24,000 bases of DNA from assembly GCA_050632415.1 (NCBI GenBank), contig CP192602.1:324641-348640 (forward strand), in the 5' to 3' direction. The notes beneath the pieces are model-generated. The model was not told where the DNA came from. It was given only the letters and a program-made list of their open reading frames with translations, and made no database searches. Positions 1,467 through 21,682 of this stretch are shown here, in pieces; the first letter of the stretch is position 1, and every line of letters begins with the position of its first letter. The DNA comes from Lysobacter sp. BL-A-41-H3. GTDB taxonomy: Bacteria; Pseudomonadota; Gammaproteobacteria; Xanthomonadales; Xanthomonadaceae. Both the position numbers and the translations under genes were made by a program.

Positions 1467-2609
1467 TCAGGCGGTCTCGCGGAGCGGACGGGCGGCGAGA
1501 CGCCGCGCCCAGTAGGACGCCTCGGGCCAGCGCCTCTCCATCGCATGGAACCCGCGCAGCTGTTCGCGATAGACGCGATGGATGTCGAGCATGTGGCGCG
1601 CGTAGGCGTCGATGGCGGTGATATCGCCCGATGCATGGCGCAGCAGGGCATCGGCGCCGCGCAGGCCGGTGTACATCGCGTTCGAGATGCCTTTGGACGA
1701 CAGCGGGTCGAAGGCGAGGGCGGCATCGCCCACGGCGAGCCAGCGGTCACAGGCGGCGCGGTCCAGGTGGCAGCCCGAGGCGTCGGCACCGCGGGTCTGC
1801 GAGGCCGGTGAATACCCGTGCGCGGTGCACAGCGCATGCAGGTGCGGTGCGTCGGCCAGCGCGCGCCAGAGGCCGTTGTCGTCGAGCAATTGGCGGTGGT
1901 CGCACAGGTCGGCATCAGTGAGGAAGGCGACCAGCCGTTCCCGTGACGGCAGCAGCACGCTGTACCACCAGCCGTTCTCGACGGCTTCGACCCAGGTGCG
2001 GCCGTCGCGGTCGTCGTCGCGCGCGGTGCGCAGGCGCTGGTGGAAGGCGATCTGCCCGTCGTGCGCGACCTTGCGTGCGCCGAGCGTGCGGGCGAGCGAT
2101 GCACTGCGGCCGGTGGCATCGATCAGCCAGTCGGCGTCGATGGATTCGGCCTCCGCGTGCGTCTGCGCATCGACGGGTCGCAGCGCGAGCCGGTGCGGTC
2201 TCGTCGCGTCGCCGGGTGCCACGATGCGCACGCGTGCGCCCTGCAGGATGTCCGCGCCGGCCTGCATCGCCGCGTCGCGCAGCATCGCGTCGAAACGCGT
2301 CCGGTCGAGCTGCAGGCCATGGCCATGCAGCTGGAAGAGGAAGTCGTTGGCGTGCGCCGTGGCATCGCCCCAGAACGCGTTGGTGCCGGGGCTGGCGCGA
2401 TGCCCGTCGGCGAGCGTGCGTTCGAGCACGCCGAGATCGCGCAGCAGCGAACGCGCATTCGGCGGCAGGCCCTCGCCGACCTTGAATGCCGTGTCGTCGC
2501 CACCCGCGACCAGCAGGACGTCGCGACCGGCGCGGGCGAGGACGATCGCGGCGGCGGCACCCGCAGGGCCGCCACCGGCGATGACGACGTCGCGACGCCG
2601 CATCGACAC
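1467..2609 (-). CDS. LodB/GoxB-like FAD-dependent flavoprotein (putative cofactor-maturation monooxygenase for the upstream oxidase)
   Basis: 380-aa ORF. It has an N-terminal Rossmann dinucleotide motif (DVVIAGGGPAGAAAAIVLARAG), a DATG motif (LIDATGRSA) and a GD motif (WLAVGDAALAFDPLSSKGI), typical of the flavin monooxygenase/halogenase-like fold. The GTG at 2607-2609 lies 4 nt after the stop of the upstream oxidase gene, suggesting translational coupling. The ATG at 2601-2603 is an equally plausible start and would give MRRRDVVIAGGG. Confidence 0.8.
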   Translation of the reverse strand: MSMRRRDVVIAGGGPAGAAAAIVLARAGRDVLLVAGGDDTAFKVGEGLPPNARSLLRDLGVLERTLADGHRASPGTNAFWGDATAHANDFLFQLHGHGLQLDRTRFDAMLRDAAMQAGADILQGARVRIVAPGDATRPHRLALRPVDAQTHAEAESIDADWLIDATGRSASLARTLGARKVAHDGQIAFHQRLRTARDDDRDGRTWVEAVENGWWYSVLLPSRERLVAFLTDADLCDHRQLLDDNGLWRALADAPHLHALCTAHGYSPASQTRGADASGCHLDRAACDRWLAVGDAALAFDPLSSKGISNAMYTGLRGADALLRHASGDITAIDAYARHMLDIHRVYREQLRGFHAMERRWPEASYWARRLAARPLRETA

Positions 2610-2613
2610 CCGG

Positions 2614-4620
2614 TCAGTCCGGTGTACGCGTGCGTCGTACCGGGAGCGGTGCGGCGTCCGCTTCGGACTGCGACGCGAAGTTCACGCCGCTGAGCCGCAG
2701 CGTGGCCATCGGATGCGCCTTGAGCGCGGCTTCCGCGTCGGAGGCTTTCGCCACGGCGCGCGGCGGTGCGGCGACGGCGGCATCGCTGGTGGTCGCGGCA
2801 TCGGCCGGCGCCACGTCGGGGCCGTACGAGGCGACCATCATCAAGGCCGGGAAGTCCGGCGCCACGCTGGCATCGAAGCGCGGTTCGACCAGGCCCATCG
2901 AACCGAAGATGTGCGTCATCTGCACCATCTGCTGCGCGGTGGTGCCATGCAGCGGCTTGTTCCAGCTGGTGCGGTTGCTGAAGGCGTCGATGCGTTTCGA
3001 CATCGGCTGGGTCTTGTCGACCACGATCGCGTAGTCGTCGGCGGTCAGCACGTGGTTCGGCACGCGCGCGGGCCAGAACGTCGGCGCGTACGGGTCGTAG
3101 GCGGTGTCGTAGCCGGCGCGGCAGAAGGCCGTGTCCGCCTGCCAGGGCAGGCCCATCCAGCGGTTGATGTCGCCGGGGCTTTGCGCGTGCAGCGGGCCAT
3201 CGGGCGCGAGTGCCTGCGCCTGGTCGAGCGTCGGGCCGTAGTCCGGTTCGGGCTGGCCCGGCGGACGTTCGAGGATGCGGAACGGCGCGCGGTACAGCGT
3301 GATGTGGCGCATCGGCCAGGTCATCTCGCAGCCGGGATGGAAGGCGTCGGCGAGACAGAATTCCATCGCCGCGCGATCGATCGTCGCCGGCTGCGCAGCC
3401 AGCGGTACCTGGTCGATGTCCGACGGGCCTGCGGCCGGCAGGCCGCCGACGCGGTCGTCGACGAAATCGCCGTTCACCCAGCGCTGCAGGATCGTGTACT
3501 GGGTCTGGCTGATCGCCGCGTTCTGGCGCGGGCTCGGCCCGGCGGGTACTTCCATTGCGTCGCCGTAGATCCACGGCCACGGCAGCTGGTTGCCGTCGGG
3601 CGGATTCGGCGGACGGAAGCTGTTGAAGACCTGGCGGCGCAGTTCTGCATTCGGGTCGTACTGACCCGCCGGTGCTTTCGAGGCGAGCCGCGCGACGAAG
3701 GCCGGATCCTCGAACGGATGCGGCCCGTCTTCGCCGTACTGCGTGGCGAAGCCCTGGTTGACCCACTGCAGGCCGGACAGCCGCTGCAGGATCGGGTAGA
3801 TGTCGTGGCTGAAGGACAGCGTGCCCGGCGCCTGCATCCAGCCGGCCTGGATGTACAGGTCGTAGAGCAGGTCGTAGAGCGTGCGCTCGGACTTGAGCTG
3901 CGGCGCGTAGTTCGGCGGCGCGGTGACCACCCAGGCCGAATCGACCGGGATGCTCTGGCCGCCGATCGCCACCGTGGCCGAGATCGGCCCGTCGCAGGTG
4001 TCGTCGTACCAGCCGTCGGCGTTGATGAAGGAATTCGGGTCGGTGGGGATGTAGATCGGCGTGTTGTTCGGCGAGGCCGAGACGCCATGGCCGCCGAGGA
4101 ACAGCAGCCGGCCGCGTTCGTCGGTGCGCAGCTCGCCGATCTTCACCGGCACTCCGGTGTAGGCGCCGCTGCAGTCGACCGGCGTCGCGTTCCTGCCGGA
4201 GATCGACTGCGGGCCGGCATCGATGGTGAGCGAGGCGCGGTCGGCGACGGTCGCGTTGCGCAGCGGCAGCACGGTGCCGGCGGCTTCCGGGATGTCCATC
4301 GCGATCTGCCACTGGTACCAGGACGCCTTGCGGTTCGCGACGTGCGCGGTCCAGGTGATGTCGGCGTTGTCTGCAGTGAGTTCGGCGACGACCTCGCCGG
4401 CCGCGTTGTAGCCGTAGATGCGGAACTGCGCGGCTTCGCGTTTCAGCGCACCGGTGGCGTCGCGGTAGAAGCCCTGGGGCTTCGGTGCGGGGTCGGGCAC
4501 CAGCGGGCCGATGTAGATGTCGTCGACGCTGTTGCCCACCCGGGCCAGGCCGATGCCCGGGTGGATGGCGGCGCGGACGATGGTGCTGTCCGAAGGGGTG
4601 CTGTCCGAGGGCGTGGTCAT
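2614..4620 (-). CDS. LodA/GoxA-like quinoprotein amino-acid oxidase (putative cysteine tryptophylquinone enzyme), 668 aa
   Basis: The track ORF runs 2614-4755. I moved the start to the ATG at 4618-4620 because a perfect AAGGAG RBS (complement of 4630-4635) sits 9 nt upstream. Blocks I recognise from the LodA family: N-terminal AAIHPGIGLARVGNS, ADAFHPGCEMTW (Cys431, codon 3328-3330) and GDINRWMGLPWQADTAFC (Trp488 at 3157-3159, Trp493 at 3142-3144). No signal peptide. A flavoprotein gene follows immediately downstream, as in lodAB and goxAB. Confidence 0.8.
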   Translation of the reverse strand: MTTPSDSTPSDSTIVRAAIHPGIGLARVGNSVDDIYIGPLVPDPAPKPQGFYRDATGALKREAAQFRIYGYNAAGEVVAELTADNADITWTAHVANRKASWYQWQIAMDIPEAAGTVLPLRNATVADRASLTIDAGPQSISGRNATPVDCSGAYTGVPVKIGELRTDERGRLLFLGGHGVSASPNNTPIYIPTDPNSFINADGWYDDTCDGPISATVAIGGQSIPVDSAWVVTAPPNYAPQLKSERTLYDLLYDLYIQAGWMQAPGTLSFSHDIYPILQRLSGLQWVNQGFATQYGEDGPHPFEDPAFVARLASKAPAGQYDPNAELRRQVFNSFRPPNPPDGNQLPWPWIYGDAMEVPAGPSPRQNAAISQTQYTILQRWVNGDFVDDRVGGLPAAGPSDIDQVPLAAQPATIDRAAMEFCLADAFHPGCEMTWPMRHITLYRAPFRILERPPGQPEPDYGPTLDQAQALAPDGPLHAQSPGDINRWMGLPWQADTAFCRAGYDTAYDPYAPTFWPARVPNHVLTADDYAIVVDKTQPMSKRIDAFSNRTSWNKPLHGTTAQQMVQMTHIFGSMGLVEPRFDASVAPDFPALMMVASYGPDVAPADAATTSDAAVAAPPRAVAKASDAEAALKAHPMATLRLSGVNFASQSEADAAPLPVRRTRTPD

Positions 4621-4737
4621 GGTGGTGCGCTCCTTGTCGTTCGATGCGGTCCGATGCGGGATGGCCGTCGTGGCCCCGTCGTGAAGTATCGCGATCCGCG
4701 CGATCGCGGCCAGCTGCAATATCGCACAGCCCCGTGA

Positions 4738-5361
<624 letters not shown>

Positions 5362-5672: not shown

Positions 5673-7742
5673 ATGAAGCCCCGTCTTGCCCGCTGCATCC
5701 TCCTGGCCCTGGGCGCCCCCGCGCTCGCAAGCGCCACCGATCCCGGCACCCTCGACACCGTCCAGGTCACCGCCTTCAAGGAAGCCGTGCTCGTGCGCGA
5801 AGGCGCCGAGTCGGTCTCCATCGTCACCGGCAAGGCGCTGCGCGATCGCGGCGCCACCGACCTGCGCACCGCGCTTTCGCTGGTCTCGGGCGTGGATGTC
5901 GCGCCGGGCGGCGATGGCGGCCCGGCCGCCTCTGTCCCGGCCATGCGCGGCCTGCGCGAGTTCGACGCCTTCCTGCTGCTGATCGACGGCGTGCCCGGCG
6001 GCGGCGCATTCACGCCGGCCCTGTCGACGATGAGCCTGGTCAACGTCGAGCGCATCGAGGTGCTCAAGGGCGCGGCCCCGGTCAGCTACGGTGCCACCAG
6101 CTTCGTCGGCGTGATCCACGTGATCCATTACGCGGCGGGCGAAGGTCCGCGCGAGGTGGAAGTCGGCGTCGGCAGCCATGGCAGCGCGCGGTTCGCCCTG
6201 TCCCTGCCGATGACCACCGACGGCCCGTGGAAGCAGTCGCTGCTGTTCGACGGCGAACGCCAGGGCACCGGCGCGGATCGCACCGCCTGGCGTCGCGGAC
6301 ACGCTTTCTATCGCGGTGCCGGCGATCTGTTCGGCGGCCGTTTCACGCTGGATGTCGAACTCACCAAGGTCGGGCAGGACCCGGCCAGTCCGCGCGTCCG
6401 CGAGGGCCGCTTCCTCACCACCCGCGTGCCGATCGACGCCAACCACAATCCGGGCGACGCCACCATCGACGAGACCCGCAGCCAGCTGTCCACGTCCTAC
6501 GTCCGCGAGACCGGCCTGGGCGAGTGGGATACGCGCCTGGCGTTCGCGCACACCGACGGCACCATCATCCGCGGCTTCCTGCGCGGCGGCTTCGCCACCA
6601 ACGGCACGACGACCAATGCCGACGGCTACGCCCAGGAGCGCGATACGGACGAGCTGTATTTCGACAGCCATGTCACCACCGCCATCAACGACAAGGCCCG
6701 GCTGATCTGGGGCACCGACTACATGCGCGGCACCGGTCGCCAGCACAGCCGGCGCTTCGAGTACGCCGTGCGCGGCGATGGCGCCAATGCGCCGGTGTCC
6801 GGCAGCCGCCCGACGCTGCAGCGCACCTTCCTCGGCGACACGCGCAACTTCCACGGCCTGTATGCCGACCTGCAGCTGACCCCGACCGAACGTTGGCGCG
6901 TCGAAGCGGGCCTGCGCTACAACTACGTCGACGAAACCCGTCGCACCCGCATCGACAACGGCCCGATCCGCGAGGACAGCCGCAGCGAAGGACGCTGGTC
7001 CGGCGCGCTGGGCAGCAGCATCCGGATCTGGGGCGGCGACACCGACTACGTCACTGCCTACGGCAGCGTGCGCCGCACCTTCAAGCCGGCCGTGGTGGAC
7101 TTCGGGCCGGGTGCCGAGCGCGACATCCTCAAGCCGGAAACCGCGAACAGCTACGAACTCGGCCTGCGCGGCGCGCTGTTCGACGGCCGCCTCGAATGGG
7201 ATCTGTCGGCGTTCCGCATGGACTTCGAGAACCTGGTCGTCACCCAGAGCATCAACGGCTCGCCGGGTCTGACCAATGCCGGTGCGCAGCGTTTCGACGG
7301 CGCGGAGATCGAAGCCGACTGGCGCATCGCCGACGACCTCACCCTGACCGGCACGTACGCCTGGCACGATGCGCGCTTCGGTGATTACCTGCAGTTGTTC
7401 GGCAGCACACCGACCCAGCTGGAAGGCAAGGTGCCGGAGATGTCGCCGGGCCACCTGGCCAGCCTCGTACTGCAGTACGCGCCGGCGAACGGTTTCGTCG
7501 CGTACGCGGTGCAGAGCTATGCCGACGCGCGCTGGCTCAACAAGCGCAATACCGCATCGGTGCCGGCCTACCGCACGGTCGATGCCGGCATCGGCTACCG
7601 CAGCGATCGCTGGGAGCTGCGTCTCGACGGCACCAACCTGAGCGACCGCCGCGATGCCGTGGCCGAAAGCGAACTCGGCGATGCGCAGTACTACCTGCTG
7701 CCGGGTCGCGCGACGCGCCTGACGTATCGTCGTCGCTTCTGA
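5673..7742 (+). CDS. TonB-dependent outer-membrane receptor
   Basis: The start was moved from 5634 to the ATG at 5673, which gives a clean signal peptide (MKPRLARCILLALGAPALASA). A TonB-box-like TLDTVQVTA is present. The plug domain shows VSIVTGKALRDRGATDLRTAL and IEVLKGAAPVSYGATSFVGVIHVI. The beta-barrel body is long and Y/G/D/T/R-rich, and the protein ends in a terminal aromatic (TYRRRF). Confidence 0.9.
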   Translation: MKPRLARCILLALGAPALASATDPGTLDTVQVTAFKEAVLVREGAESVSIVTGKALRDRGATDLRTALSLVSGVDVAPGGDGGPAASVPAMRGLREFDAFLLLIDGVPGGGAFTPALSTMSLVNVERIEVLKGAAPVSYGATSFVGVIHVIHYAAGEGPREVEVGVGSHGSARFALSLPMTTDGPWKQSLLFDGERQGTGADRTAWRRGHAFYRGAGDLFGGRFTLDVELTKVGQDPASPRVREGRFLTTRVPIDANHNPGDATIDETRSQLSTSYVRETGLGEWDTRLAFAHTDGTIIRGFLRGGFATNGTTTNADGYAQERDTDELYFDSHVTTAINDKARLIWGTDYMRGTGRQHSRRFEYAVRGDGANAPVSGSRPTLQRTFLGDTRNFHGLYADLQLTPTERWRVEAGLRYNYVDETRRTRIDNGPIREDSRSEGRWSGALGSSIRIWGGDTDYVTAYGSVRRTFKPAVVDFGPGAERDILKPETANSYELGLRGALFDGRLEWDLSAFRMDFENLVVTQSINGSPGLTNAGAQRFDGAEIEADWRIADDLTLTGTYAWHDARFGDYLQLFGSTPTQLEGKVPEMSPGHLASLVLQYAPANGFVAYAVQSYADARWLNKRNTASVPAYRTVDAGIGYRSDRWELRLDGTNLSDRRDAVAESELGDAQYYLLPGRATRLTYRRRF

Positions 7743-7758
7743 TCGCGCATCCGGTCAT

Positions 7759-7793
7759 GCCGGGCGACGTGGTCACGTGCTGCATCGCCCGGC
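7759..7793. terminator. GC-rich hairpin between convergent genes (possible bidirectional terminator)
   Basis: GCCGGGCGA (7759-7767) and TCGCCCGGC (7785-7793) form perfect 9-bp arms around a 17-nt loop that contains CACGTG. It lies between the receptor stop (7742) and the DUF2721 stop (7806). There is no U-tract on either strand. Confidence 0.3.
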
Positions 7794-7805
7794 GCCGCGC
7801 ACTCC

Positions 7806-8267
7806 TCAATTCCGCCGTCGCGCCATTTCCTGGTCGAGCTCTTCATCGAAGCTCTTCACCGACAGCCCGACTTCGCGGCCCATGTAGATGCTGGCCAGGA
7901 GCAGGCAGAGCATGCCGGCGACGGCGATGACGGTCGGCACGGCGCCGACGATGGGAAAGCCGAGCAGGGCATCGGCGGCGAGGGCGAGGCTGGTGCCGAT
8001 GAAGGCGCCCAGCGCGGCATAGAGCAGGCGGCAGGCGCGCAGCACCATGGCGGCGCGGGTGCGGTGGCGCTGGATCTGCAGGTCGCGTTCGCTGCGGTCG
8101 GGCGCGTCCTTTTCCCAGGCCACGATCAGGGCGCGGAGGCGATCCACCACGCGGGCGAGCCGGGCGTTCGCCGAGACCAGCAGCGAGCCGGTGGCGGCCA
8201 TCAGCAGGGCCGGCGCCAGCATCGCACCGAGGATCGAATGGTGGTCGATGGGGGCGGGCAGGGACAT
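7806..8267 (-). CDS. DUF2721-like small membrane protein (153 aa)
   Basis: Only the distal 153 codons of track ORF 7806-8945 look coding. The rest is antisense to orn. The start ATG is at 8265-8267. There are hydrophobic segments at both ends, with a charged amphipathic middle ([21 protein letters not shown]...[12 protein letters not shown]), matching my recollection of DUF2721. Confidence 0.6.
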
Positions 8268-9364: not shown

Positions 9365-9394
9365 TCCGGATAGAGCGCGTAGCGCGAATCCGGG
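9361..9394 (+). repeat. Composite palindrome between convergent genes (terminator or REP-like)
   Basis: The outer stem pairs TCCGGAT (9365-9371) with ATCCGGG (9388-9394; 6 Watson-Crick pairs plus one G-U). The inner stem is CGCG/CGCG around a TAG loop. It is preceded by GTAG (9361-9364), which includes the yciI-like stop codon. Confidence 0.35.
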
Positions 9395-9463
9395 ATTGCC
9401 TGCCTGCGAAAGGTTCTTGCTCTACCCGGGCCACGTCACTGAGCGACAGCGGCGAGGGTCGCG

Positions 9464-12400
9464 TCAGCCCGATGCAGGCTGGCTGCCGCGTTCGCACAGG
9501 ATCCTGTCCAGGCGATCGAGCAGGAACTCCGCATCCTGCATGGTGAAGCACAGCGGTGGGCGGATCTTGAGCACGTTGTCGTGCGGGCCTTCCGAACCGA
9601 TCAGGATGCGCTCCTCGCGCAGGCGATTGACCACATGGGCGGTCTGCCGGGTCGCGGGCGCGCGCATTGCCCGATCGTCGACGAGTTCGGCGCCGATGAA
9701 CAGGCCCATGCCGCGCACGTCGCCGATGATCGCGTGCCGCTCGGCCAGTGTACGCAGGCCGTCGAGCACGACATCGCCCACGCGCCGGGCGTTCTCCTGC
9801 AGCCCTTCCTCCTCCACGATGCGCAGCACTTCGCGACCGACCACGCACGACACGGTGCTGCCGCCGAAGGTGCTGAAGAACTCCATGCCGTTGGCGAAGC
9901 TGTCGGCGATGTCGCGGCGGGTGACGACCGCGCCGATCGGATGTCCGTTGCCCATCGGCTTGCCGAGCACGACGATGTCGGGAATCACGCCCTGGGTGTC
10001 GAAGGCCCAGAACGATTCGCCGATGCGGCCCAGCCCCGTCTGGACTTCGTCGGCGATGCACACGCCGCCGGCGGCGCGGACGGCGGCGTAGGCGTGGCGG
10101 TAGTAGTCGGGCGGCGGAATGATCTGTCCGCCGACGCTGGGGAAGACTTCGCTGATGAAGGCGGCCGGGCTGCGCCCGCAGGCATGGATGCGCGCGATCG
10201 CCTCATCGACGCACGCGGCATAGGCCCGGCCCGTGGCGGCTGTGTGCTCGCGCCATGGCCCGCGATAGCTGTCCGCGAGCGGGACGACCTGGACCCAGTC
10301 GGGCGCACCCTGTCCGCCCGGGCCCGCGTGCTTGTACGGACTGAGATCGATCATCGTGCTGGAATTGCCGTGATAGGCGGTGTCCATGACGATCACGTCG
10401 CGCTGCCTGGTATGCGTGCGCGCGAGGCGCAGGGCCAGCTCGTTGGCCTCGGTGCCGGAGTTGACGAAGAAGCAGACGCTGAGCGGATCCGGCATGCGCG
10501 CGAGCAGGGCTTCGGCGTATTCGGCGTAGGACGGATGGACGTAGCGGGTGTTGGTGTTGAGCAGGCGCATCTGCCTGGATGCGGCCTCGATCACGCGGGG
10601 ATGCGCGTGCCCGACATGGGGCACATTGTTGTAGGCATCGAGGTAGGCGCGGCCCTCGTTGTCCAGCAGGAACTGTTTCCAGCCGCGGACCATCGCCAGC
10701 GGAGCGCGATAGGACAGACGCAGGTTGGCGCTGCTGCAGGCCCTGCGCCGTTCGAGCCACTGCGCCCGCAGCTCCGCTTCGGCGACGACCTCGTCGCGTG
10801 GCCATCCGAGCATCGACATGCAGCCCCGGTTGCGCGCGAGCCAGGCAGATGAGGCATCGGGATCGCAGGCGTCGGGCAGGTCGCCGTCGCCGTCCATCGC
10901 CGTCCAGACGCCCGGTGACGGATCGAGGCGCAGGTACAGCCTGCCGAGGTCATCGGTGAGATCCGGCGTCGATGCAATGACGCCCAGCTGCATGCCGACG
11001 TCGACCTGCGTACCGGGCTGGAAGCCCTGCGGGATCTCGGTAATGCCGCCGACATGTGTGTAGAACGGCGTTCCATCCGGCATGGCATGCGCAAGCACCA
11101 GCGCGTGCCCGAGTGAAGCCTGCGTCGTGATGCGATGCACCGTGCCTGCAAGCGGTGCACGCACGGCAGTGCCGGCGGGCGCGTACACGGTATGGCCCAG
11201 GCGGACCGCCTGCCGGGAGGACGCCGGATGCGAGGCATCATCGTCTCCGCAGGGCCAGAGCAGATCGCCCTCGCAGGCCAGCAGCGCCTCGGCGCAATGT
11301 GCCTGGCGAAGTTCCGCGAGCAGCGTCGACCAGGCAGCGGCCAGTGCGGTGGCGCTGGCTCTAACCGGATTGCCCGCCAGCGCCAGTTGTTCCGTCACGC
11401 TGCCGATGCGGTGCGCGGCGCGCAGTGCGTCGGGCAGCGGCCACGCGCGCGCCCCCGGGGGCAGTGCGGCCAGCCATTCGCCGATCCTGCGGTCGTCGGG
11501 ATGCGCCTCGCGCCCGCAGGCCAGGCGGATGCGCGCCTCCACCCATTCCGCCGGCGTGCGCGACAGCGTGTGGAGCAGCGCCCATGCAGGGCGTTCCGAG
11601 ATCGTCACGTAGGGGTCGTCGGGATGCTCGCGCTTGCGGATCGCCGAGTTGGTCACGCTCACGGCCAGGCGGGTCAGCATCAGCGGGAAGAGCAGGGCGA
11701 GGCTTTCGTCGCACAGCTGCTGCTGCCGGTCGTAGCCCGCCGCGAGCCTGCACAGGGCGTCGACCGGATCGGATTCGCCCATCAGCGCATAGGCGGCGGC
11801 GATGGCGAGATTGGCGACCACGGGCGCATGCGCCATGTCGCCGAAGTCGATGATCCCGCTGATCGACCGCGTGCCATCGCGCGTCGCGACCATCAGGTTG
11901 TAGTCGTTCAGATCGTTGTGGATCGCCTGGCGTGGCAGGGCGGCGAGCCGGTCCTGCAGATCTCTGCGATACCTGGACGCGATGTGCGCGACCAGGATCC
12001 GGTCGCATGGCGACTCGATCTGCGCGGCTTCCGTCTCGATCCACTCCGCTGTCAGCAGGTTCCACTTGCAGGGCCTGTGCAGGGCGGGGTGCGCGAAATC
12101 CTGCAAGGCCCGATCCAGTTGCGCCAGCGTCTCGCCCAGCCTGTCGTGCAGGGCATCGCCGGGACGCACGCAGGCGGCATACGGAGCGCCTTCGAGATGC
12201 GAGATCAGCCAGACCAGGCGAGGTATGCCGGCGGGATCGTTCACTTCGAGGAACAGCGCGCCGTCCCCTGCAGGGACGATGTCCGGCACGGGCAGCGAAG
12301 CCGCGCGTGCCCGGACATGGGCATGCGCCTTGCACAGCATGTCGACGAACTCAGGCTGACAGCCCGGACGCATCACCTTCAGCACGTGCGTGCGCAGGCC

Positions 12401-12538
12401 TTCGCGGACCACGGCCAGGTTCAGGTCGTACTCGCCATCCAGGCGCTGCAGTTCGGCGGACAGGCCATAGTGCGCCTGCAGGCAGTCACGCCAGTGGGCG
12501 GGATCGAATTCGGCCGGGGGTGTCATGGGCAGGGCCAT
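9464..12538 (-). CDS. Three-domain fusion: APH-type small-molecule kinase, degenerate M23-like domain, and class-III (AGXT2L/ETNPPL-type) PLP aminotransferase or phospho-lyase
   Basis: 1024 aa. Residues 1-335 form the kinase, with the catalytic loop IHNDLNDYN (H207, D209, N214) and IDFGD (231-234). Residues ~445-540 form an M23/LytM-like fold (GHTVYAPAGTAVRAPLAGTV ... LVLAH ... FYTHV ... GTQVDVGMQLGVIAS) that lacks the HxxxD Asp and the HxH pair; RLYLRL occupies the HLHFE position. Residues ~600-1024 form the class-III aminotransferase (FVNSGTEANELALRLAR, IADEVQTGLGRIGESFWAF, PDIVVLGKPMGNGHP with Lys860, MEFFSTFGGSTVS, NVLKIRPPLCFT). No clear SD precedes either ATG 12538 or ATG 12526. Confidence 0.85.
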   Translation of the reverse strand: MALPMTPPAEFDPAHWRDCLQAHYGLSAELQRLDGEYDLNLAVVREGLRTHVLKVMRPGCQPEFVDMLCKAHAHVRARAASLPVPDIVPAGDGALFLEVNDPAGIPRLVWLISHLEGAPYAACVRPGDALHDRLGETLAQLDRALQDFAHPALHRPCKWNLLTAEWIETEAAQIESPCDRILVAHIASRYRRDLQDRLAALPRQAIHNDLNDYNLMVATRDGTRSISGIIDFGDMAHAPVVANLAIAAAYALMGESDPVDALCRLAAGYDRQQQLCDESLALLFPLMLTRLAVSVTNSAIRKREHPDDPYVTISERPAWALLHTLSRTPAEWVEARIRLACGREAHPDDRRIGEWLAALPPGARAWPLPDALRAAHRIGSVTEQLALAGNPVRASATALAAAWSTLLAELRQAHCAEALLACEGDLLWPCGDDDASHPASSRQAVRLGHTVYAPAGTAVRAPLAGTVHRITTQASLGHALVLAHAMPDGTPFYTHVGGITEIPQGFQPGTQVDVGMQLGVIASTPDLTDDLGRLYLRLDPSPGVWTAMDGDGDLPDACDPDASSAWLARNRGCMSMLGWPRDEVVAEAELRAQWLERRRACSSANLRLSYRAPLAMVRGWKQFLLDNEGRAYLDAYNNVPHVGHAHPRVIEAASRQMRLLNTNTRYVHPSYAEYAEALLARMPDPLSVCFFVNSGTEANELALRLARTHTRQRDVIVMDTAYHGNSSTMIDLSPYKHAGPGGQGAPDWVQVVPLADSYRGPWREHTAATGRAYAACVDEAIARIHACGRSPAAFISEVFPSVGGQIIPPPDYYRHAYAAVRAAGGVCIADEVQTGLGRIGESFWAFDTQGVIPDIVVLGKPMGNGHPIGAVVTRRDIADSFANGMEFFSTFGGSTVSCVVGREVLRIVEEEGLQENARRVGDVVLDGLRTLAERHAIIGDVRGMGLFIGAELVDDRAMRAPATRQTAHVVNRLREERILIGSEGPHDNVLKIRPPLCFTMQDAEFLLDRLDRILCERGSQPASG

Positions 12539-12570
12539 CGGGAGATGCGGGATCGCGGGCTCCGCTCATG

Positions 12571-12595
12571 GTAGCCACGCGGCCGGCAGGCCGCG
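12571..12595 (+). repeat. GTAG-prefixed GC-rich hairpin in the lrp-fusion intergenic region
   Basis: GTAG-CCA is followed by CGCGGCC-GGCA-GGCCGCG (a 7-bp stem at 12578-12595). It is preceded by CATG, as is the 5587 element. Confidence 0.3.
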
Positions 12596-12634
12596 CCGGC
12601 ACATCGCCTGCGGTCGGCGGCATTTCGTCGGCAG

Positions 12635-12653
12635 CACCGGCGCCTTGCCGGTG
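12635..12653 (-). terminator. Hairpin immediately downstream of the Lrp gene (weak terminator or processing signal)
   Basis: CACCGGC-GCCTT-GCCGGTG is a perfect 7-bp stem. It lies 7 nt after the lrp stop on the minus strand and is not followed by a U-tract. Confidence 0.25.
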
Positions 12654-12660
12654 TGCGCGC

Positions 12661-13122
12661 TCAGAGAACGGGCTGTGCGGGGTCCAGATGCGTGGCCAGC
12701 ACCAGGTGCGTCCTGCAGTCGATCACGCCGGGCAGCACGGAGATCGTGTCGCGGAGTCGATTGAGTGCATCGACATCGCCGGCCTCCACGTCGATCGCCA
12801 GATCGATGTCGCCCGCGAGGGAGCGGATTTGCGCGACGCCTGGCAGGACGGCCAGGGATTCGACCAGATCGTAGGCCGGTGTCTTCGCGATGCGGACCAG
12901 CAGCAGCGCGCGGGTCGGCAGTGCGCCGGTGGGGCGCGCATGTCCCCGGCCGGCGACCACGGCGCGATACCCGAGGATGGCGCCGCTGTCTTCGAGACGT
13001 TTCAGGCGCGCGGTGACCGCGCTGCGCGACAGACCGACCAGGGCCGCGAGCCGTTTGAGGGCGATCCGCCCGTCTTTCGCGATGATGTCGAGGATGCGCT
13101 GGTCGATGTCGTCGGGATGCAT
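12661..13122 (-). CDS. Lrp/AsnC-family transcriptional regulator (153 aa)
   Basis: The start was moved to the ATG at 13120-13122. The N-terminal HTH_AsnC motif is DDIDQRILDIIAKDGRIALKRLAALVGLSRSAVTARLKRLEDSGAILGY. The C-terminal RAM/AsnC_trans_reg-like half contains ESLAVLPGVAQIRSLAGDIDLAIDVEA. Confidence 0.85.
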   Translation of the reverse strand: MHPDDIDQRILDIIAKDGRIALKRLAALVGLSRSAVTARLKRLEDSGAILGYRAVVAGRGHARPTGALPTRALLLVRIAKTPAYDLVESLAVLPGVAQIRSLAGDIDLAIDVEAGDVDALNRLRDTISVLPGVIDCRTHLVLATHLDPAQPVL

Positions 13123-13246
13123 GCCGCTGTCCGCCCTGGGGCCCGCCCGTGGAGGGCATGGCCGGGAGGCGACTGGCCGATCCCGGCGTCGTCGGGGCGC
13201 CATGGGCACCCCGTTGTGAGCTCATGCCATCGTTGCGGCCGACGTA

Positions 13247-15619
13247 TCAGCCCGCCTTCGACTTCGCCAGCTTGAGCCAGGTGTCGACCACGGTGTCCGG
13301 ATTGAGCGACACCGACTCGATGCCTTCTTCCATCAGCCACTGGGCGAGGTCCGGGTGGTCGCTGGGGCCCTGGCCGCAGATACCGACGTACTTGCCCTTG
13401 CGCTTCGCGGCCTGGATGGCCATCGAGAGCATCTTCTTCACCGCGGGGTCGCGCTCGTCGAAGAGGTTGGCGACGATCGAGGAATCGCGGTCCAGGCCCA
13501 GGGTGAGCTGGGTCATGTCGTTGGAGCCGATCGAGAAGCCGTCGAAGATGTCGAGGAATTCGTCGGCGAGCAGGGCGTTCGACGGTACTTCGCACATCAT
13601 GATGATCTTCAGGCCGTCTTTTCCTTGTTCAAGACCGTTCTCGCGCAGCACCTCGATCACCTTGCGGCCTTCGTCGAGCGTGCGCACGAACGGGATCATC
13701 ACCCAGCAGTTGTCCAGGCCCATGGTCTCGCGGACCTTGCGCACCGCGCGGCATTCCAGCGCGAAGGCTTCGCGGAACGACGGGTCGATGTAGCGGGATG
13801 CACCACGGAAGCCGATCATCGGGTTCTCTTCATGCGGCTCGTAGCGCGCGCCGCCGATGAGGTTGGCGTATTCGTTGGACTTGAAGTCCGACAGGCGCAC
13901 GATCACAGGATTCGGCGCGGCCGATGCAGTGATGGTGGCGATGCCTTCGGCCAGGCGGTCCACGTAGAAATCGACCGGACTGGCGTAGCCGGCCATCTTC
14001 GCGTCGATCTTGCGCTTCGTGTCGGCGTCCTGGTTGGCGTAGTCGAGCAGCGCCTTGGGATGCACGCCGATGTGGCTGGCGATGATCATTTCCAGGCGCG
14101 CCAGACCGATGCCCGCATTCGGCAGCATCGCGAAATCGAAGGCGCGCTCCGGATTGGCGACGTTCATCATGATCTTCAGAGGCGCCGGCGGCATGTTGTC
14201 GAGATCGGTGACGATGCGCTCGAACGGCAGTTCGGTGTCGTAGATGAAGCCGGTGTCGCCCTCGGCGCAGCTCACGGTCACCGGCTGGCCGTCCTGCACG
14301 GTGTCCAGCGCGTTGCCGGTGCCGACCACGGCCGGCACGCCCAGCTCGCGGGCGATGATCGCGGCGTGGCAGGTGCGACCGCCACGGTTGGTCACGATCG
14401 CGGCGGCGCGCTTCATCACCGGTTCCCAGTCGGGATCGGTCATGTCGGCGACCAGCACGTCGCCGGGCTGGACGCGGTTCATGTCGGCGATCGAGCGCAC
14501 CACGCGGGCGGTGCCGCTGCCGATCTTGTGGCCGATGGCGCGGCCTTCGGCGATCACTTCGCCGCGACGCAGCAGCGAGAAGCGCTCGATCTGCGTGGCG
14601 TGCGCGCGCGACTTCACGGTTTCCGGGCGTGCCTGCACGATGAACAGCTTGCCGGTGACGCCGTCCTTCGCCCACTCGATGTCCATCGGACGGCCGTAGT
14701 GTTCTTCGATGACCAGCGCCTGCTTCGACAGCTCCTGCACGTCTTCGTCGGTGATCGAGAAGCGGTTGCGCAGCTCGGCCGGCGTGTCCTCGTTGCGCAC
14801 GCGCTCGCCGGGCTTGTCCGAATACACCATGCGGATCTGCTTGCTGCCCAGCGCGCGGCGCAGGATCGCCGGCTTGCCCTGGCGCAGCGTCGGCTTGTAG
14901 ACGTAGAACTCGTCGGGATTCACCGCGCCCTGCACGACGTTCTCGCCCAGGCCGTAGCTGGCGGTGACGAACACCACGTCGCGGAAGCCCGATTCGGTGT
15001 CCAGGGTGAACAGCACGCCGGACGAACCGACATCCGAGCGCACCATCAGCTGCACGCCGGCCGACAGGAACACGTCCTCGTGCTTGAAGCCGTGATGCAC
15101 GCGATAGGCGATCGCACGGTCGTTGTAGAGGCTGGCGAACACTTCCTTGACCTTGTGCACCACGTCGTCGGCGCCGGTCACGTTGAGGAAAGTTTCCTGC
15201 TGCCCGGCGAACGAGGCGTCCGGCAGGTCTTCGGCGGTGGCCGAGGAGCGCACCGCGACCGCGATGTCCGTGCCACCATTTTCCGCGCACAGCTGCGCGT
15301 AGGCGGTGCGGATGTCGCGATCCAGCTCAGGCTGCAGCGGGGCATCGGTCACCCAGCCGCGGATCTCGGCGCCGGCGGCGGTGAGCGCGGGCACGTCGTC
15401 CACGTCCAGCGTCGCCAGCTTGTCGTAGATGCGCTGGTGCAGGTTGTTGTGGGCGATGAAGTCCTTGAAGGCCTCGGCGGTGGTCGCGTAGCCGCCCGGC
15501 ACCGACACCCCGAGCTGGGCCAGGTGGCCGATCATTTCGCCGAGGGAGGAGTTCTTGCCGCCGACGCGTGCAAGGTCGGACAGGCGCAGCGCGTGCAGCC
15601 AGAGGATGTTCTCGTTCAA
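13247..15619 (-). CDS. ppsA: Phosphoenolpyruvate synthase (790 aa)
   Basis: The sequence matches PpsA throughout: [33 protein letters not shown], the phosphohistidine loop [23 protein letters not shown], and the C-terminal PEP-utilising domain [15 protein letters not shown]. The track ORF continues to 16657, but homology begins at NENILWL. I place the start at TTG (complement of 15617-15619), with GGAG 7 nt upstream. Confidence 0.95.
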
Positions 15620-15661
15620 GGGACAACTCCAGACGGGCGCGTGGGGGCGCCGGGGCGGGGA

Positions 15662-17213: not shown

Positions 17214-17289
17214 TGGCGTCCCCACGGGGATTCGAACCCCGGTCGCTACCGTGAAAGGGTAATGTCCTAGGCCTCTAGACGATGGGGAC
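17214..17289 (-). tRNA. tRNA-Glu (anticodon UUC), copy 1
   Basis: The reverse complement is GTCCCCATCGTCTAGAGGCCTAGGACATTACCCTTTCACGGTAGCGACCGGGGTTCGAATCCCCGTGGGGACGCCA. The cloverleaf folds by hand: acceptor GTCCCCA/TGGGGAC, anticodon loop CTTTCAC, T-loop GGTTCGAATCC, encoded CCA. It is very close to E. coli tRNA-Glu. Confidence 0.95.
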
Positions 17290-17356
17290 GCTGGTAAAAC
17301 GCTCGTGTGCGATCGGTCTTTCGACCAGGCCTGAACCGCACGCGATTGGTGAAACC

Positions 17357-17432
17357 TGGTGGAGCCAGCCGGGATCGAACCGGCGACCTCCTGCATGCCA
17401 TGCAGGCGCTCTCCCAGCTGAGCTATGGCCCC
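17357..17432 (-). tRNA. tRNA-Ala (anticodon GGC), copy 1
   Basis: The reverse complement is GGGGCCATAGCTCAGCTGGGAGAGCGCCTGCATGGCATGCAGGAGGTCGCCGGTTCGATCCCGGCTGGCTCCACCA. The G3:U70 alanine identity pair is present, the anticodon loop is ATGGCAT and CCA is encoded. Confidence 0.95.
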
Positions 17433-17447
17433 ACATTTGGGACGCGC

Positions 17448-17476
17448 ATCTTAATCAGATGTCCCTGATCCCGCAA
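17448..17476 (-). promoter_or_regulatory. Sigma70-type promoter for tRNA unit 1
   Basis: The minus strand reads TTGCGG (complement of 17471-17476), a 17-nt spacer, then TAAGAT (complement of 17448-17453). The -10 hexamer ends about 15 nt upstream of the tRNA-Ala 5' end. Confidence 0.5.
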
Positions 17477-17561
17477 GCGTTTGCGATGAAAATGTCATGC
17501 GATCGGTGCAGTGTCGGCAACGTCGGGAAAACCTGCCCGCAAATTCACGGCAACGGAAACG

Positions 17562-17587
17562 ACGAAGCCCGCTTTCGCGGGCTTCGT
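17562..17587 (-). terminator. Hairpin after tRNA unit 2 (identical copy of 17177-17202)
   Basis: This is the same perfect 11-bp stem, ACGAAGCCCGC-TTTC-GCGGGCTTCGT, offset by exactly 385 bp. Confidence 0.5.
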
Positions 17588-17598
17588 GTTTGAAGAAG

Positions 17599-17674
17599 TG
17601 GCGTCCCCACGGGGATTCGAACCCCGGTCGCTACCGTGAAAGGGTAATGTCCTAGGCCTCTAGACGATGGGGAC
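17599..17674 (-). tRNA. tRNA-Glu (anticodon UUC), copy 2
   Basis: The sequence is identical to copy 1, offset by 385 bp. Confidence 0.95.
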
Positions 17675-17741
17675 GCTGATGACGCTCTCGTGTGCGATCG
17701 GTCTTTCGACCAGGCCTGAACCGCACGCGATTGGTGAAACT

Positions 17742-17817
17742 TGGTGGAGCCAGCCGGGATCGAACCGGCGACCTCCTGCATGCCATGCAGGCGCTCTCCC
17801 AGCTGAGCTATGGCCCC
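17742..17817 (-). tRNA. tRNA-Ala (anticodon GGC), copy 2
   Basis: The sequence is identical to copy 1, offset by 385 bp. Confidence 0.95.
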
Positions 17818-17893: not shown

Positions 17894-19183
17894 TCACCAG
17901 AGCGCATCGCGCAGCTTGTACCAGGCCATCGCCGCGACCAGCAGCGGGGTGCGGAAGGTCCGGCCGCCGGGGAAGTCGCGGTGACGGATGCGTTCGAACA
18001 CGTCGAGCCGCTCCGACTGGCCGCGCACGGCCTCGGCGATCAGCGTGCCGGCCAGGCCGCTGACGTTGACACCGTGCCCGGAGAAACCCTGCGCGAAATA
18101 GACGTTGCGCTGGCCGATCCGGCCCCAGTGCGGCGCGCGGTTGAGGCTGATGTCGATGGTGCCGCCCCAGAGGTATTCGAAGCCGACCTCGGCCAATTGC
18201 GGGAACACCCGGTGCATGCGCCGCGCCATCACCCAGCGCAGGTTCGGCGGTTCGAGGTTCGAGTAGCTGGCGCGGCCGCCGAACAGCAGGCGGCCGTCGC
18301 GGGACAGCCGGAAATAGTCCAGCGCCCAGTTGATGTCGGCCACGGCCATGTCGGTCGGGAGCAGGCGGTGCGCGAGATCGCCCAGTGGCGGGGTGGCGCC
18401 GATGTAGGTGCCGACGGGCATGATCCTGCGATCGAGTTCGGGCGCGACGCCCTTCACCAGTGCGTTGCCGGCGAGTACGGCGATGTCGCAGCGGACGTTG
18501 CCGCGTGCGGTCTTCAGCACGGGGCGCGGGCCGTGTTCGATGGCGGTCACGCGCGTGCCTTCGCAGATGCGCACGCCGCGTTCGAGCGCGGCGCGTGCGA
18601 GGCCGAGCGCGTACTTGAGCGGGTGCAGGTGGCCGGAACGGCCGTCGTAGAGGCCGCCGAGGTAGCGCGGCGAATCGACCCGTTCCCGCAGCGCATCGCG
18701 ATCCAGCCAGGCCAGAGGATAGTCGTAGTGCGTCTGCAGTTCGTCTCGCCAGTCGTGCAGGGCGCGGACCTGGCGCGGCTTGATCGCGACATGGCAGTGC
18801 CCGTCGCGCCAGTCGCAGTCGATGCCGTGGCGCTCGCGGCGCTCATGGATCAGGCGGATGCTTTCCAGCGACCAGTCGAACATCCGTCGCGCATCCTCGC
18901 GGCCGAGCTGCGCTTCGAGCGTGGCTTCGCTGCAGCCCCAGCCGAAGATGACCTGGCCGCCGTTGCGGCCCGACGCGCCCCAGCCGATGCGCTCGGCCTC
19001 CAGGACCACGACGCGGTAACCGGCCTCGGCCAGTGTCAGCGCGGCGGAGAGGCCGACGTAACCAGCGCCAAGGATGCAGACATCGGCATCCAGGTCGCCA
19101 TCGAGCGGCGGTTGCGGCGGCAGCGGCGTGGTGCTCGCGGCGTACCAGCTGGGCGGGTAGGAGGAGGGCATGGCAGGCGTCAT
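17894..19183 (-). CDS. FAD-dependent oxidoreductase, gamma-glutamylputrescine oxidase-like (PuuB/PauB/OrdL family)
   Basis: 429 aa. The N-terminus ([10 protein letters not shown] ... [46 protein letters not shown]) parallels E. coli PuuB (SSYYAAS ... [45 protein letters not shown]). The DAO-family C-terminus contains [10 protein letters not shown]. Confidence 0.85.
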   Translation of the reverse strand: [429 protein letters not shown]

Positions 19184-19206
19184 TGCTGCGGGAAGACCTT
19201 GGCTTT

Positions 19207-19300
19207 GTAGGAGGGCCTTCAGGCCCGAGTTCTTGCCTTGAGAAGCCCAAAAGCTCGGGCCTGGTTTTCAACAGCCGAATGGCTGGTCAGGCCCTCCTAC
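19207..19300. repeat. Pair of inverted GTAG-type REP-like elements enclosing two internal hairpins (94-nt composite structure)
   Basis: The outer arms are GTAGGAGGGCCT (19207-19218) and AGGCCCTCCTAC (19289-19300), perfect 12-nt complements. The inner 10-bp stem pairs CAGGCCCGAG (19220-19229) with CTCGGGCCTG (19254-19263) and is followed by GTTTTC on the plus strand. A second small hairpin is CAGCC-GAAT-GGCTG (19272-19285). The element fills the 123-bp gap between two co-oriented minus-strand genes. Confidence 0.6.
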
Positions 19301-19306
19301 GAAAAA

Positions 19307-20686
19307 CTAGACCGATCGCAGGTACCAGTCGTATTCGAGTGTGCTGACTTCGCGGTAGAAGCTGTGCAGTTCCTTCAGCTTCTGCTGGCCGTAGATGTGC
19401 CGGAACTTCTCGCCGAACTGCGTGGCGATGAAGTCGCTGGCCATGAAGTCGCCGATCGCGTCGCGCCAGTACGGCGTGCGGATCTCGGTCTGCTCGTAGG
19501 CGTTTCCGACGATCGGCGCGCCGGGGTCGTAGCCGTGTTCGATCCCGTCGAGCATGCCGGCCAGCACGGCGGCGGCTGCGAGATAGACGTTGGCGTCGGC
19601 GCCGGCGATGCGGTGCTCGATGCGCGTGTTCTTCTGGTCGCTGTGCGGGATGCGCATCGCGACGGTGCGGTTGTTGAAGCCCCAGACCGCGTTCAGCGGC
19701 ACGAAGGCGTTCAGCACGAAGCGGCGGTAGCTGTTGGCGTTCGGCGCGAACAGCAGCAGGCAGTCCTGTGCGCTGCGCTGCAGGCCGCCGATGGCGTGCT
19801 TCAGCGCGTCGGCGGGCTGGTCGGGCGTGCAGGCGAAGATGTTGTTGCCATCGTTGTCGAGCACGCTGACGTGGATATGCAGGCCGCTGCCCGCCTGTTC
19901 GGCGAGCGGCTTGGCCATGAAGCTGGCCTGCAGGCCCTGCTGCTGGGCCACGGCCTTGATCGCGCGCTTGAGGTAGATGGCGTCGTCGCAGGCGAGCAGG
20001 GCGTCGTCGCGGTGCTTGAGGTTGATCTCGAACTGGCCCGGCGCGTACTCGGCGACGGCGGTGTCGGCCGGGATGCCCTGGGCCTTGCAGGCACTGGACA
20101 CGGCGTCGATGAACGGGCCGAAGTCGTTCAGGTCCTCGATGTAGTAGACCTGCGTGCTGGTGTTGCGCGCGCCGTTGTGCGGGTTGATCGGCGGCTGCGG
20201 GCGGCCGTTGGCGTCGGGCAGGCGGTCGAACAGGTAGAACTCCAGTTCGATCGCGACCACCGGCTTGAGGCCGCGCGCGGCGTAGCGGGCGAGGACGCGT
20301 TTGAGCACTTCGCGGGGATTGGCCTCGAAGGCGCTGCCGTGGGTGTCCTCCATCGACAGCAGCAGCTGCGCCATCGGCTTGTTCGACCACGGCACCGGGC
20401 GCAACGTGCCGGGGACGGGGCGACAGATCCGGTCCTCGTCGCCGATGTCGTAGCCCAGGCCGGTCTCTTCGACAGTGTTGCCGGTGATGTCGGTGGCGAT
20501 CAGGGACATCGGCAGACAGACGCCGGATTCGTAGACCTTCTCCAGCGCGTCGCGGGTGATCCGCTTGCCGCGGAGCAGCCCGTTCATGTCGGGCAGGATG
20601 AGATCCACCAGTTCGCAGTCGCGAATCTGTTCCATGGCGAGGCGGTCTTCGTGGCTGAGGCTTGCGGACATGGGCGGGTGGGTCAT
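19307..20686 (-). CDS. Glutamine synthetase-family gamma-glutamylpolyamine ligase (PuuA/SpuI/PauA-like), 459 aa
   Basis: The GS beta-grasp and catalytic domains are present: VDLILPDMNGLLRGKRI, VVAIELEFYLF, SGLHIHVSVLD, NSYRRF, NRTVAMRIP, RIEHRIAGADANVYL. The start was moved from TTG 20740 to the ATG at 20684-20686, which has GGAG 7 nt upstream. Confidence 0.85.
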   Translation of the reverse strand: MTHPPMSASLSHEDRLAMEQIRDCELVDLILPDMNGLLRGKRITRDALEKVYESGVCLPMSLIATDITGNTVEETGLGYDIGDEDRICRPVPGTLRPVPWSNKPMAQLLLSMEDTHGSAFEANPREVLKRVLARYAARGLKPVVAIELEFYLFDRLPDANGRPQPPINPHNGARNTSTQVYYIEDLNDFGPFIDAVSSACKAQGIPADTAVAEYAPGQFEINLKHRDDALLACDDAIYLKRAIKAVAQQQGLQASFMAKPLAEQAGSGLHIHVSVLDNDGNNIFACTPDQPADALKHAIGGLQRSAQDCLLLFAPNANSYRRFVLNAFVPLNAVWGFNNRTVAMRIPHSDQKNTRIEHRIAGADANVYLAAAAVLAGMLDGIEHGYDPGAPIVGNAYEQTEIRTPYWRDAIGDFMASDFIATQFGEKFRHIYGQQKLKELHSFYREVSTLEYDWYLRSV

Positions 20687-20792
20687 CGAGGGCTCCGCAA
20701 CAGTGTGACAGTTGGCGACGCAGGACGGAAACGGCGTCAAGAATAATTAACAGGCTTTCCGGATTAATTCCAGAAAAATCAGAGACGACAAC

Positions 20793-20807
20793 TGCTGCGC
20801 CGCAGCA
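20793..20807. promoter_or_regulatory. Perfect 15-bp palindrome in the divergent polyamine-cluster control region (candidate operator)
   Basis: TGCTGCG-C-CGCAGCA has 7-bp arms separated by 1 nt, a geometry that suits a dimeric DNA-binding protein rather than an RNA hairpin. It lies 93 nt upstream of the amidohydrolase ATG, next to the only AT-rich stretch of the region (20740-20790, containing AATTAA and TTAATT). Confidence 0.3.
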
Positions 20808-20899
20808 TTTTCGCAACGCCGGGGATCGCAGGACGCGAAGTGTTGCAGAAATCGAACATCGCGGTTAACGTTCGGACGAGGTCTCGTCGAGCGTTCCGC

Positions 20900-21676: not shown

Positions 21677-21682
21677 ATTCCC

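Follow-up and report, generated by a model that had tools for sequence, protein, structure and literature searches.

What does a bacterial cell do with a single polypeptide that joins a kinase, a peptidase-like module and an enzyme dependent on pyridoxal 5'-phosphate (PLP)? This question is raised by a gene of Lysobacter sp. BL-A-41-H3, located in a stretch of 24,000 nucleotides (contig CP192602.1, positions 324,641 to 348,640; GC content about 68%) that was analysed as a whole and is called here the window. The gene, at positions 9464..12538 of the window on the minus strand, starts with an ATG and encodes 1024 amino acids, followed by a stop codon, in an uninterrupted frame, according to the list of open reading frames (ORFs) and their translation. 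It is preceded by a gene encoding a transcriptional regulator of the Lrp/AsnC family. Considering the homologies described below, we propose, with a probability of about 0.7, that this fusion protein degrades a 1,2-amino alcohol in the cytoplasm by two successive steps, with an M23 part that would serve as a scaffold and the product of the adjacent Lrp gene as its likely regulator.

A first reading, based on the sequence only, had described an APH kinase, an M23-like module and a class-III PLP domain joined in one ORF, and this layout is confirmed by the translation and by Pfam. The three expected domains are detected, i.e., APH at residues 35-261 (E 7e-17), Peptidase_M23 at residues 448-525 (E 4.5e-4) and Aminotran_3 at residues 614-1014 (E 1e-71), the M23 match (20.8 bits) remaining under the gathering score of 28.7. 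All the motifs that this reading had quoted (HNDLNDYN, IDFGD, ADEVQTGLGRIG, GKPMGNGHP, MEFFSTFGG and NVLKIRPPLCFT) are found in the translation. As judged by eye, no signal peptide is recognised at the N-terminus of the protein, so that it is probably cytoplasmic. On the minus strand, the kinase domain covers residues 1-345 (11504..12538) and is followed by a linker (residues 346-440; 11219..11503). Then come a domain of M23/LytM fold (residues 441-560; 10859..11218) and the class-III PLP domain (residues 606-1024; 9464..10723).

This architecture belongs to an already known, curated and very widespread family. The whole protein matches the NCBIfam model NF004799/PRK06148 with 1149 bits (cut-off 1128) over residues 8-1016 of 1024, a full-length score that places the shared architecture far beyond chance. 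This model bears the name "hypothetical protein", and the protein also aligns with the sister model PRK06149. A search among 5.8 billion proteins led to 1291 matches, of which the top 120, nearly all close to 1000 amino acids in length, carry the precomputed Pfam domains PF01636, PF01551 and PF00202. Among the species representatives of GTDB, the architecture is present in at least 600 species-level genomes. The 80 loci kept for study from these matches belong to Alphaproteobacteria and Gammaproteobacteria, Acidobacteriota, Gemmatimonadota, Chloroflexota, Planctomycetota, Bacteroidota and metagenome-assembled genomes (MAGs) of Thorarchaeota. The protein of the window is collinear with the 24 family members aligned and shares 43-53% identity with members from many phyla. 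Thus, it has in common with the "tri-functional" proteins of NF004799/PRK06148 their domain order, their length of about 1000 amino acids, their collinearity over the full length and identical catalytic residues in the kinase and PLP domains. It differs from them by the loss of five M23 residues, by the lack of a GxYGEPRLIYT motif and by two small insertions, a combination that is unique when compared with 198 members. Two Candidatus Thorarchaeota MAGs (L075 and L084) encode full-length members that are 38% identical to the protein of the window and keep the M23, kinase and PLP residues intact, which implies either a transfer between domains of life or a contamination of the bins.

Such "bi- or tri-functional" bacterial proteins are said to have been the clue that led Veiga-da-Cunha et al., in 2012, to the human HYKK, PHYKPL and ETNPPL. 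The sequence-only reading had likewise stated that a bacterial association of kinase and lyase guided the human work, in agreement with two papers where the 2012 discovery is cited as guided by gene fusion or comparative genomics (PMC12138971, PMC5714238).

The reaction catalysed by the C-terminal half can be approached through its closest characterised relatives. When the PLP domain is compared with all PDB sequences, the best match is the human ethanolamine-phosphate phospho-lyase ETNPPL (AGXT2L1; 6tor), with 469 bits and 51-52% identity over 403 residues, followed by an Arthrobacter phospholyase (5g4i; 322 bits, 42% identity). The following matches, which include racemases, GABA-AT, DGD and ornithine or acetylornithine transaminases, do not exceed 186 bits. 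The resemblance to the AGXT2L1/AGXT2L2 branch noticed in the first reading is therefore borne out, and the domain does not group with the GABA or ornithine transaminases. The identity with the second human paralogue, PHYKPL (AGXT2L2; sequence confirmed as Q8IUZ5 by exact look-up), is 47%, the alignments with the two human proteins extending over about 405-418 residues. The Schiff-base lysine (K860) and the PLP-binding residues D830 and Q833 are intact in the fusion protein, invariant in the family and conserved in the human enzymes. The latter are stand-alone proteins, whereas the lyase of the window is one domain of a fusion. The assignment of this domain to the ETNPPL/PHYKPL phospho-lyases rather than to the transaminases is well supported by these comparisons, and an elimination activity is predicted. 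Between the human ETNPPL and PHYKPL, the identity reaches 68%, and both share the same 41-49% identity with six further members of the family. As the bacterial PLP domains are similarly distant from two paralogues that are closer to each other, they constitute an outgroup to ETNPPL and PHYKPL.

The N-terminal domain points to the same pathway. Its AlphaFold2 (AF2) model has a mean pLDDT (per-residue confidence score) of 92.6, and the residues K54, H207, D209, N214 and D231 are intact. Among them, K54, D209, N214 and D231 are invariant in the fusion protein and in 198 homologues (117 from databases and 81 encoded by the genomes). Foldseek searches with this model retrieve first 2ppq, a homoserine kinase from Agrobacterium, then 6ef6, annotated as "microcompartment-associated aminopropanol kinase", both of which act on hydroxyl groups of small molecules, and then antibiotic kinases. 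In the same way, a profile built from 22 kinase domains of the family has 6ef6 (30 bits) as its best PDB match, followed by 2ppq (24 bits). The vertebrate hydroxylysine kinases (HYKK, also AGPHD1) are much closer. These were retrieved by a sequence search whose matches, with up to 99% identity, are named hydroxylysine kinase. BLASTP aligns the domain with the Papio HYKK over 316 residues (25% identity, E 2e-28), whereas hhalign, with a probability of 99.9% (E 4.6e-37), extends the homology over 320 columns, i.e., the whole kinase domain including its C-terminal helical part, with HxDLNDxN and DFxD shared. Since HYKK proteins score 138-160 bits with the family profile and the PDB kinases 30 bits at most, the kinase, of APH or protein-kinase-like fold, is assigned to the HYKK branch. 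Thus, the APH kinase with an intact catalytic loop announced by the sequence-only reading is retrieved by domain search, model and homology alike. However, the vertebrate enzyme is free-standing and only 25% identical, and its specificity for hydroxylysine cannot be assumed for the fused kinase.

From these two homologies, we infer a phosphorylate-then-eliminate reaction on a hydroxy-amine, as already suggested by the sequence-only reading. The HYKK-type kinase would transfer a phosphate from a nucleoside triphosphate to the hydroxyl group adjacent to a terminal amine. The PLP domain would then form an aldimine with the amine and eliminate the phosphate. The resulting enamine or imine would be hydrolysed to ammonia and an aldehyde, as in the ETNPPL and PHYKPL reactions. 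Candidate substrates are 5-hydroxylysine, ethanolamine, 1-amino-2-propanol or related compounds, between which the sequence data do not discriminate. A comparable logic, in which a kinase and then a PLP phospho-lyase lead to an aldehyde, is found in the aminoacetone-utilisation microcompartment of Mycobacterium. Its kinase (6ef6) is the best PDB match of the window kinase by sequence profile and the second-best by structure. Nevertheless, these are two separate and encapsulated proteins, and the similarity with 6ef6 (30 bits, 22% identity) is weak and far below that with HYKK. The classical amino alcohol kinase and O-phosphate phospho-lyase pathway of Erwinia and Pseudomonas, reportedly described by Jones, Faulkner and Turner in 1973, would obey the same two-step logic.

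The region that separates the two catalytic domains has followed a very different course. In 22 diverse homologues, it carries the M23 motifs RTVHLGVD (HxxxD), YGHL and PHLHFQL (HxH). All 117 database homologues and all 81 genome-encoded homologues, which come from many phyla, have H, D, H, H and H at the five positions that bind zinc or take part in catalysis. In the fusion protein, these positions are occupied by R446, T450, G498, R533 and Y535. Only its close relatives P0001 (96% identical) and P0002 (89%) share this erosion, with four of the five residues lost and the last histidine kept, and it is only in this clade that the Pfam M23 score falls under the threshold. The fold itself is retained. 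A family profile of the middle region matches ShyA (best E 9e-10), LytM and lysostaphin, and the AF2 model of residues 346-606 shows a beta-core with pLDDT values of 72-96. All 41 Foldseek matches at E <= 1e-3 are M23/LytM domains, including the degenerate ones of EnvC, DipM, SpoIIQ and Csd2. The M23-like module noticed in the first reading is therefore real as a fold but, as judged from its residues, degenerate and most probably catalytically dead, its metal-binding and catalytic residues being replaced. Given these five replacements and the score below the gathering threshold, the fusion protein should not be classified among the active M23 peptidases. Over the middle 260 residues, the identity with homologues drops to 20-29%, against 43-53% for the whole protein.

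Upstream from the M23 core, about 70 residues (approximately 375-445) are predicted by AF2 to be disordered (pLDDT 29-49). The proteins of the clade contain two insertions, and their linker lacks the GxYGEPRLIYT motif conserved in the family. In place of this motif lies HCAEALLACEGDLLWPCGDDD, a stretch containing Cys and His residues (residues 414-434; around 11237-11299, minus strand) that is longer than its counterpart in the family, conserved in the three clade members and predicted to be disordered. Another modification of the middle region is seen in P0030, a JGI metagenome protein of 878 amino acids, where an M23 core of about 145 residues is deleted and the kinase is directly joined to the DWPGVADPD segment. 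Unless this sequence, known from a single contig, results from an assembly artefact, the middle domain would have been lost independently in this protein. The M23 site thus looks essential in almost every member of the family and seems to have been dispensed with at least twice.

The M23 fold deprived of zinc ligands is reminiscent of the non-catalytic LytM partners EnvC, NlpD, DipM, SpoIIQ and Csd2, which are among the Foldseek matches. These proteins reside in the periplasm or the envelope, where they control cell-wall hydrolases or form channels, whereas the domain described here lies inside a cytoplasmic metabolic enzyme. With its zinc site lost, the middle domain would not be a metallopeptidase and, most simply, would hold the kinase and PLP domains apart as a structural spacer or serve them as a scaffold.

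The loss of the M23 active site in this clade, while the fold, the frame and the purifying selection are kept, is a new observation. Ratios of nonsynonymous to synonymous substitutions (dN/dS) were computed among the three clade members, i.e., the fusion protein, P0001 and P0002. All have an identical length of 1024 codons and an intact 3075-nt frame (dS about 0.2). The overall dN/dS of the gene is 0.19-0.30, with 0.09-0.14 for the PLP domain, 0.26-0.33 for the kinase domain, 0.37-0.43 for the M23 domain and 0.45 for the linker. Every domain, with a value well below 1, is thus under purifying selection.

The gene found upstream from the fusion gene provides a second line of information. As announced by the sequence-only reading, an Lrp/AsnC regulator of 153 amino acids (12661..13122, minus strand) is encoded on the same strand, 122 bp upstream (intergenic region 12539..12660). 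Pfam detects in it HTH_AsnC-type (PF13404, E 6e-13), HTH_24 and AsnC_trans_reg (PF01037, E 6e-10), PF13404 and PF01037 being above their cut-offs. The Lrp gene is also upstream from the fusion gene in both close relatives, where the order ppsA, Lrp gene, spacer of 122-123 bp and fusion gene is kept. The nearest relatives of the fusion protein among the matches listed come from Microvirga (51-52% identical). These orthologues also adjoin an Lrp gene, which is however convergent and located 50 bp downstream. The Lrp of the window shares 48-53% identity with the Lrps flanking the Microvirga orthologues and 29% with an unrelated Lrp, which indicates a common inheritance of the regulator and enzyme genes. 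Only one subclade shows this pairing, which, outside the clade of the window, is shared only with Microvirga. When the conservation considered by the first reading was surveyed, the architecture was found to extend to many phyla, whereas the Lrp neighbour does not extend beyond this subclade. The Lrp most likely controls the fusion gene by sensing a small amine or an amino acid, and the 122-bp spacer presumably holds a putative promoter or operator. This spacer measures about 122 bp in the three clade members, and its conservation is about that expected from neutral divergence. A search for promoters, terminators and conserved operators in the spacers gave nothing above background.

The Lrp gene and the fusion gene lie together in a segment (9365..13246) located between the YCII and orn genes on one side and the stop codon of ppsA on the other. 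In about 20 related metagenome contigs (Orn 59-80% and PpsA 65-87% identical), the orn-ppsA-ppsR synteny is present, and in none of them are orn and ppsA separated by an Lrp or a fusion gene. This indicates that the pair is a lineage-specific insertion, which appears to have entered a Lysobacter-like lineage of Xanthomonadaceae as a cassette downstream from ppsA. The clusters to which the neighbouring genes of the window belong are indeed named Lysobacter or Xanthomonadaceae. The cassette follows ppsA in the three clade members. On its downstream side, one relative carries YCII and orn, as in the window, while the other carries genes encoding a LytTR response regulator and a histidine kinase. 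Clusters at 90% identity have four members for the fusion protein and four for the Lrp, against 38-48 for ppsR and orn. The co-inheritance of Lrp and enzyme and the presence of the pair as a lineage-specific insertion between orn/YCII and ppsA are, like the loss of the M23 site, new observations. Base composition was also considered as evidence of a foreign origin. However, the GC content at third codon positions (GC3) of the cassette, 0.83-0.85 against 0.86-0.92 for its neighbours, is too weak an indication alone.

Several other explanations of this locus deserve to be weighed against the two-step enzyme. The erosion of the M23 site could be the first visible casualty of a general decay, the whole enzyme losing its function after a horizontal transfer. 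Besides the destruction of this active site, such a decaying remnant would account for the low identity of the middle 260 residues (20-29%, against about 50% for the whole protein), for the raised dN/dS of the kinase (0.26-0.33) and of the middle region (0.4-0.45), and for the rarity of the clade, whose 90%-identity clusters hold 4 members against 38-48 for the neighbouring housekeeping genes. However, a frame of 3075 nt that remains intact, with 1024 amino acids, in three lineages at a dS of about 0.2 is difficult to reconcile with it. The same is true for the catalytic residues of the kinase and PLP domains, which are all kept, and for selection, with a dN/dS of about 0.1 for the PLP domain and values well below 1 in every domain. 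We consequently regard decay as unlikely. The opposite proposal, that the protein has kept the three functions that the other family members seem to possess, and that its middle domain hydrolyses a peptide or an amide through a non-canonical active site, could rely on the M23 fold, retained with high confidence, and on the Cys/His-rich insertion gained by the clade just upstream, which could in principle bind a metal. Yet this insertion is predicted to be disordered, and R, T, G, R and Y replace residues that are invariant in 198 of 198 relatives, which makes this proposal very improbable.

The C-terminal domain could also be an ordinary omega-transaminase and not a phospho-lyase. Its amine substrate would then be phosphorylated or not, and its role could be, for instance, biosynthesis or the modification of an antibiotic. 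The names given by Pfam and NCBIfam are generic ("aminotransferase class III"), the source annotations read "4-aminobutyrate aminotransferase-like", and the fold does not reveal the type of reaction. Against this, two phospho-lyases whose structure and biochemistry have been characterised outscore the transaminases by about 280 bits. Furthermore, the domain is fused to a homologue of HYKK, the kinase that makes the PHYKPL substrate in vertebrates, and the gene lies outside biosynthetic clusters in all 86 loci where its surroundings were compared. A transaminase therefore appears improbable here, and the two-step catabolic enzyme remains the preferred reading.

Some results nevertheless weigh against this two-step enzyme, or at least against its details. 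The relative similarity to ETNPPL and PHYKPL was considered as a way to discriminate between substrates and was rejected, the bacterial domains being an outgroup to both; for the same reason, the substrate specificity of the human paralogues is not transferable. The genomic context was rejected as a clue to the substrate as well, because no pathway partner (aldehyde dehydrogenase, transporter or other) is conserved beside the gene in the 86 loci. De novo clustering of the 2559 flanking ORFs of these loci revealed only lineage-specific synteny, the commonest neighbour being a generic ABC ATPase (11 loci). In the 122-bp spacer, no sigma-70-like or terminator-like site and no Lrp-type operator was recognised. 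With a kinase dN/dS of about 0.3 and a middle region that evolves fast, some loss of function in this lineage is conceivable. Finally, a full-text literature search retrieved neither a biochemical characterisation of any bacterial fusion protein, nor a comment on the M23 domain of the family, nor a report of a bacterial substrate.

Two loci carry neighbours that could be related to the activity of the enzyme. In a Gemmatimonadota MAG (L006), a RidA/Ribonuc_L-PSP gene (7589-7975, plus strand) ends 26 bp before the fusion gene, a situation seen in this single locus. Enamines or imines released by PLP-dependent eliminations are deaminated by RidA proteins, whose presence would fit a lyase chemistry. 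In one other locus, a gene encoding an MFS transporter is directly upstream from the fusion gene; such cases are too few to count.

In the window itself, other genes concern amine or lysine metabolism. A LodA-like L-lysine epsilon-oxidase of 713 amino acids (LodA_N and LodA_C; 2614-4755, minus strand) is followed by a LodB-like flavoprotein (1467-2609, minus strand). Lysine epsilon-oxidase yields 2-aminoadipate semialdehyde, as does PHYKPL. This likeness is probably a coincidence, the pair being separated from the fusion gene by 4.7 kb that contain unrelated genes. A Puu-like gamma-glutamylation cluster for amine catabolism (17894-23134) includes genes encoding a DAO-family oxidase (17894-19183, minus strand), two glutamine-synthetase-like proteins (19307-20740, minus strand, and 21683-23134, plus strand) and a Peptidase_C26/PuuD-like amidotransferase (20840-21676, plus strand). 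It is separated from the fusion gene by ppsA, ppsR, a DUF1249 gene and tRNA genes. The latter result from the tandem duplication of a tRNA-Glu(UUC)/tRNA-Ala(GGC) pair, i.e., four tRNA genes in 600 bp (17214-17817, minus strand).

The ppsA gene (13247-15622, minus strand) starts with a sequence read as LNENILWLH, and an in-frame ATG is found only well inside the conserved N-terminus; its translation thus probably begins at a codon other than ATG. The 1136-residue ppsA ORF extends far upstream and is overlapped by an antisense ORF of 1059 residues; both this extension and the antisense ORF are artefacts of the GC-rich sequence. Compared with the window, positions 1-297 of the contig L003 encode the C-terminal 99 residues of a PpsA that is 100% identical there, whereas the adjacent Lrp and fusion proteins are 84% and 89% identical. 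The cassette either changes at a far higher rate than the housekeeping gene beside it or was exchanged through recombination.

Beyond this strain, the locus bears on the annotation and on the biology of the whole family. Names such as GABA aminotransferase or M23 peptidase should be avoided for its product, for which "putative amino-alcohol kinase / phospho-lyase" can be used. The locus also supplies a natural control, namely an orthologue that has lost nothing but its M23 site and whose kinase and lyase are still under selection. Besides, the ligand of a dedicated and co-inherited Lrp should point to the substrate. The dead M23 domain and the co-transferred Lrp thus provide handles on the substrate of the family and on the role of a cytoplasmic M23 domain. 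A tentative and rather doubtful extension of the two-step enzyme can be formulated from this. The M23 domain of the family might hold a third activity, that of a cytoplasmic amidase or peptidase freeing the amino alcohol from a conjugate before its phosphorylation. The clade of the window would then be a natural knockout specialised in the free substrate, with the dead domain remaining as a scaffold, in the way that EnvC and NlpD recruited degenerate LytM domains. If this were true, the family would be a three-step assembly line carried by one polypeptide, and the comparison of the protein of the window with its Microvirga orthologue would reveal what M23 domains do in the cytoplasm.

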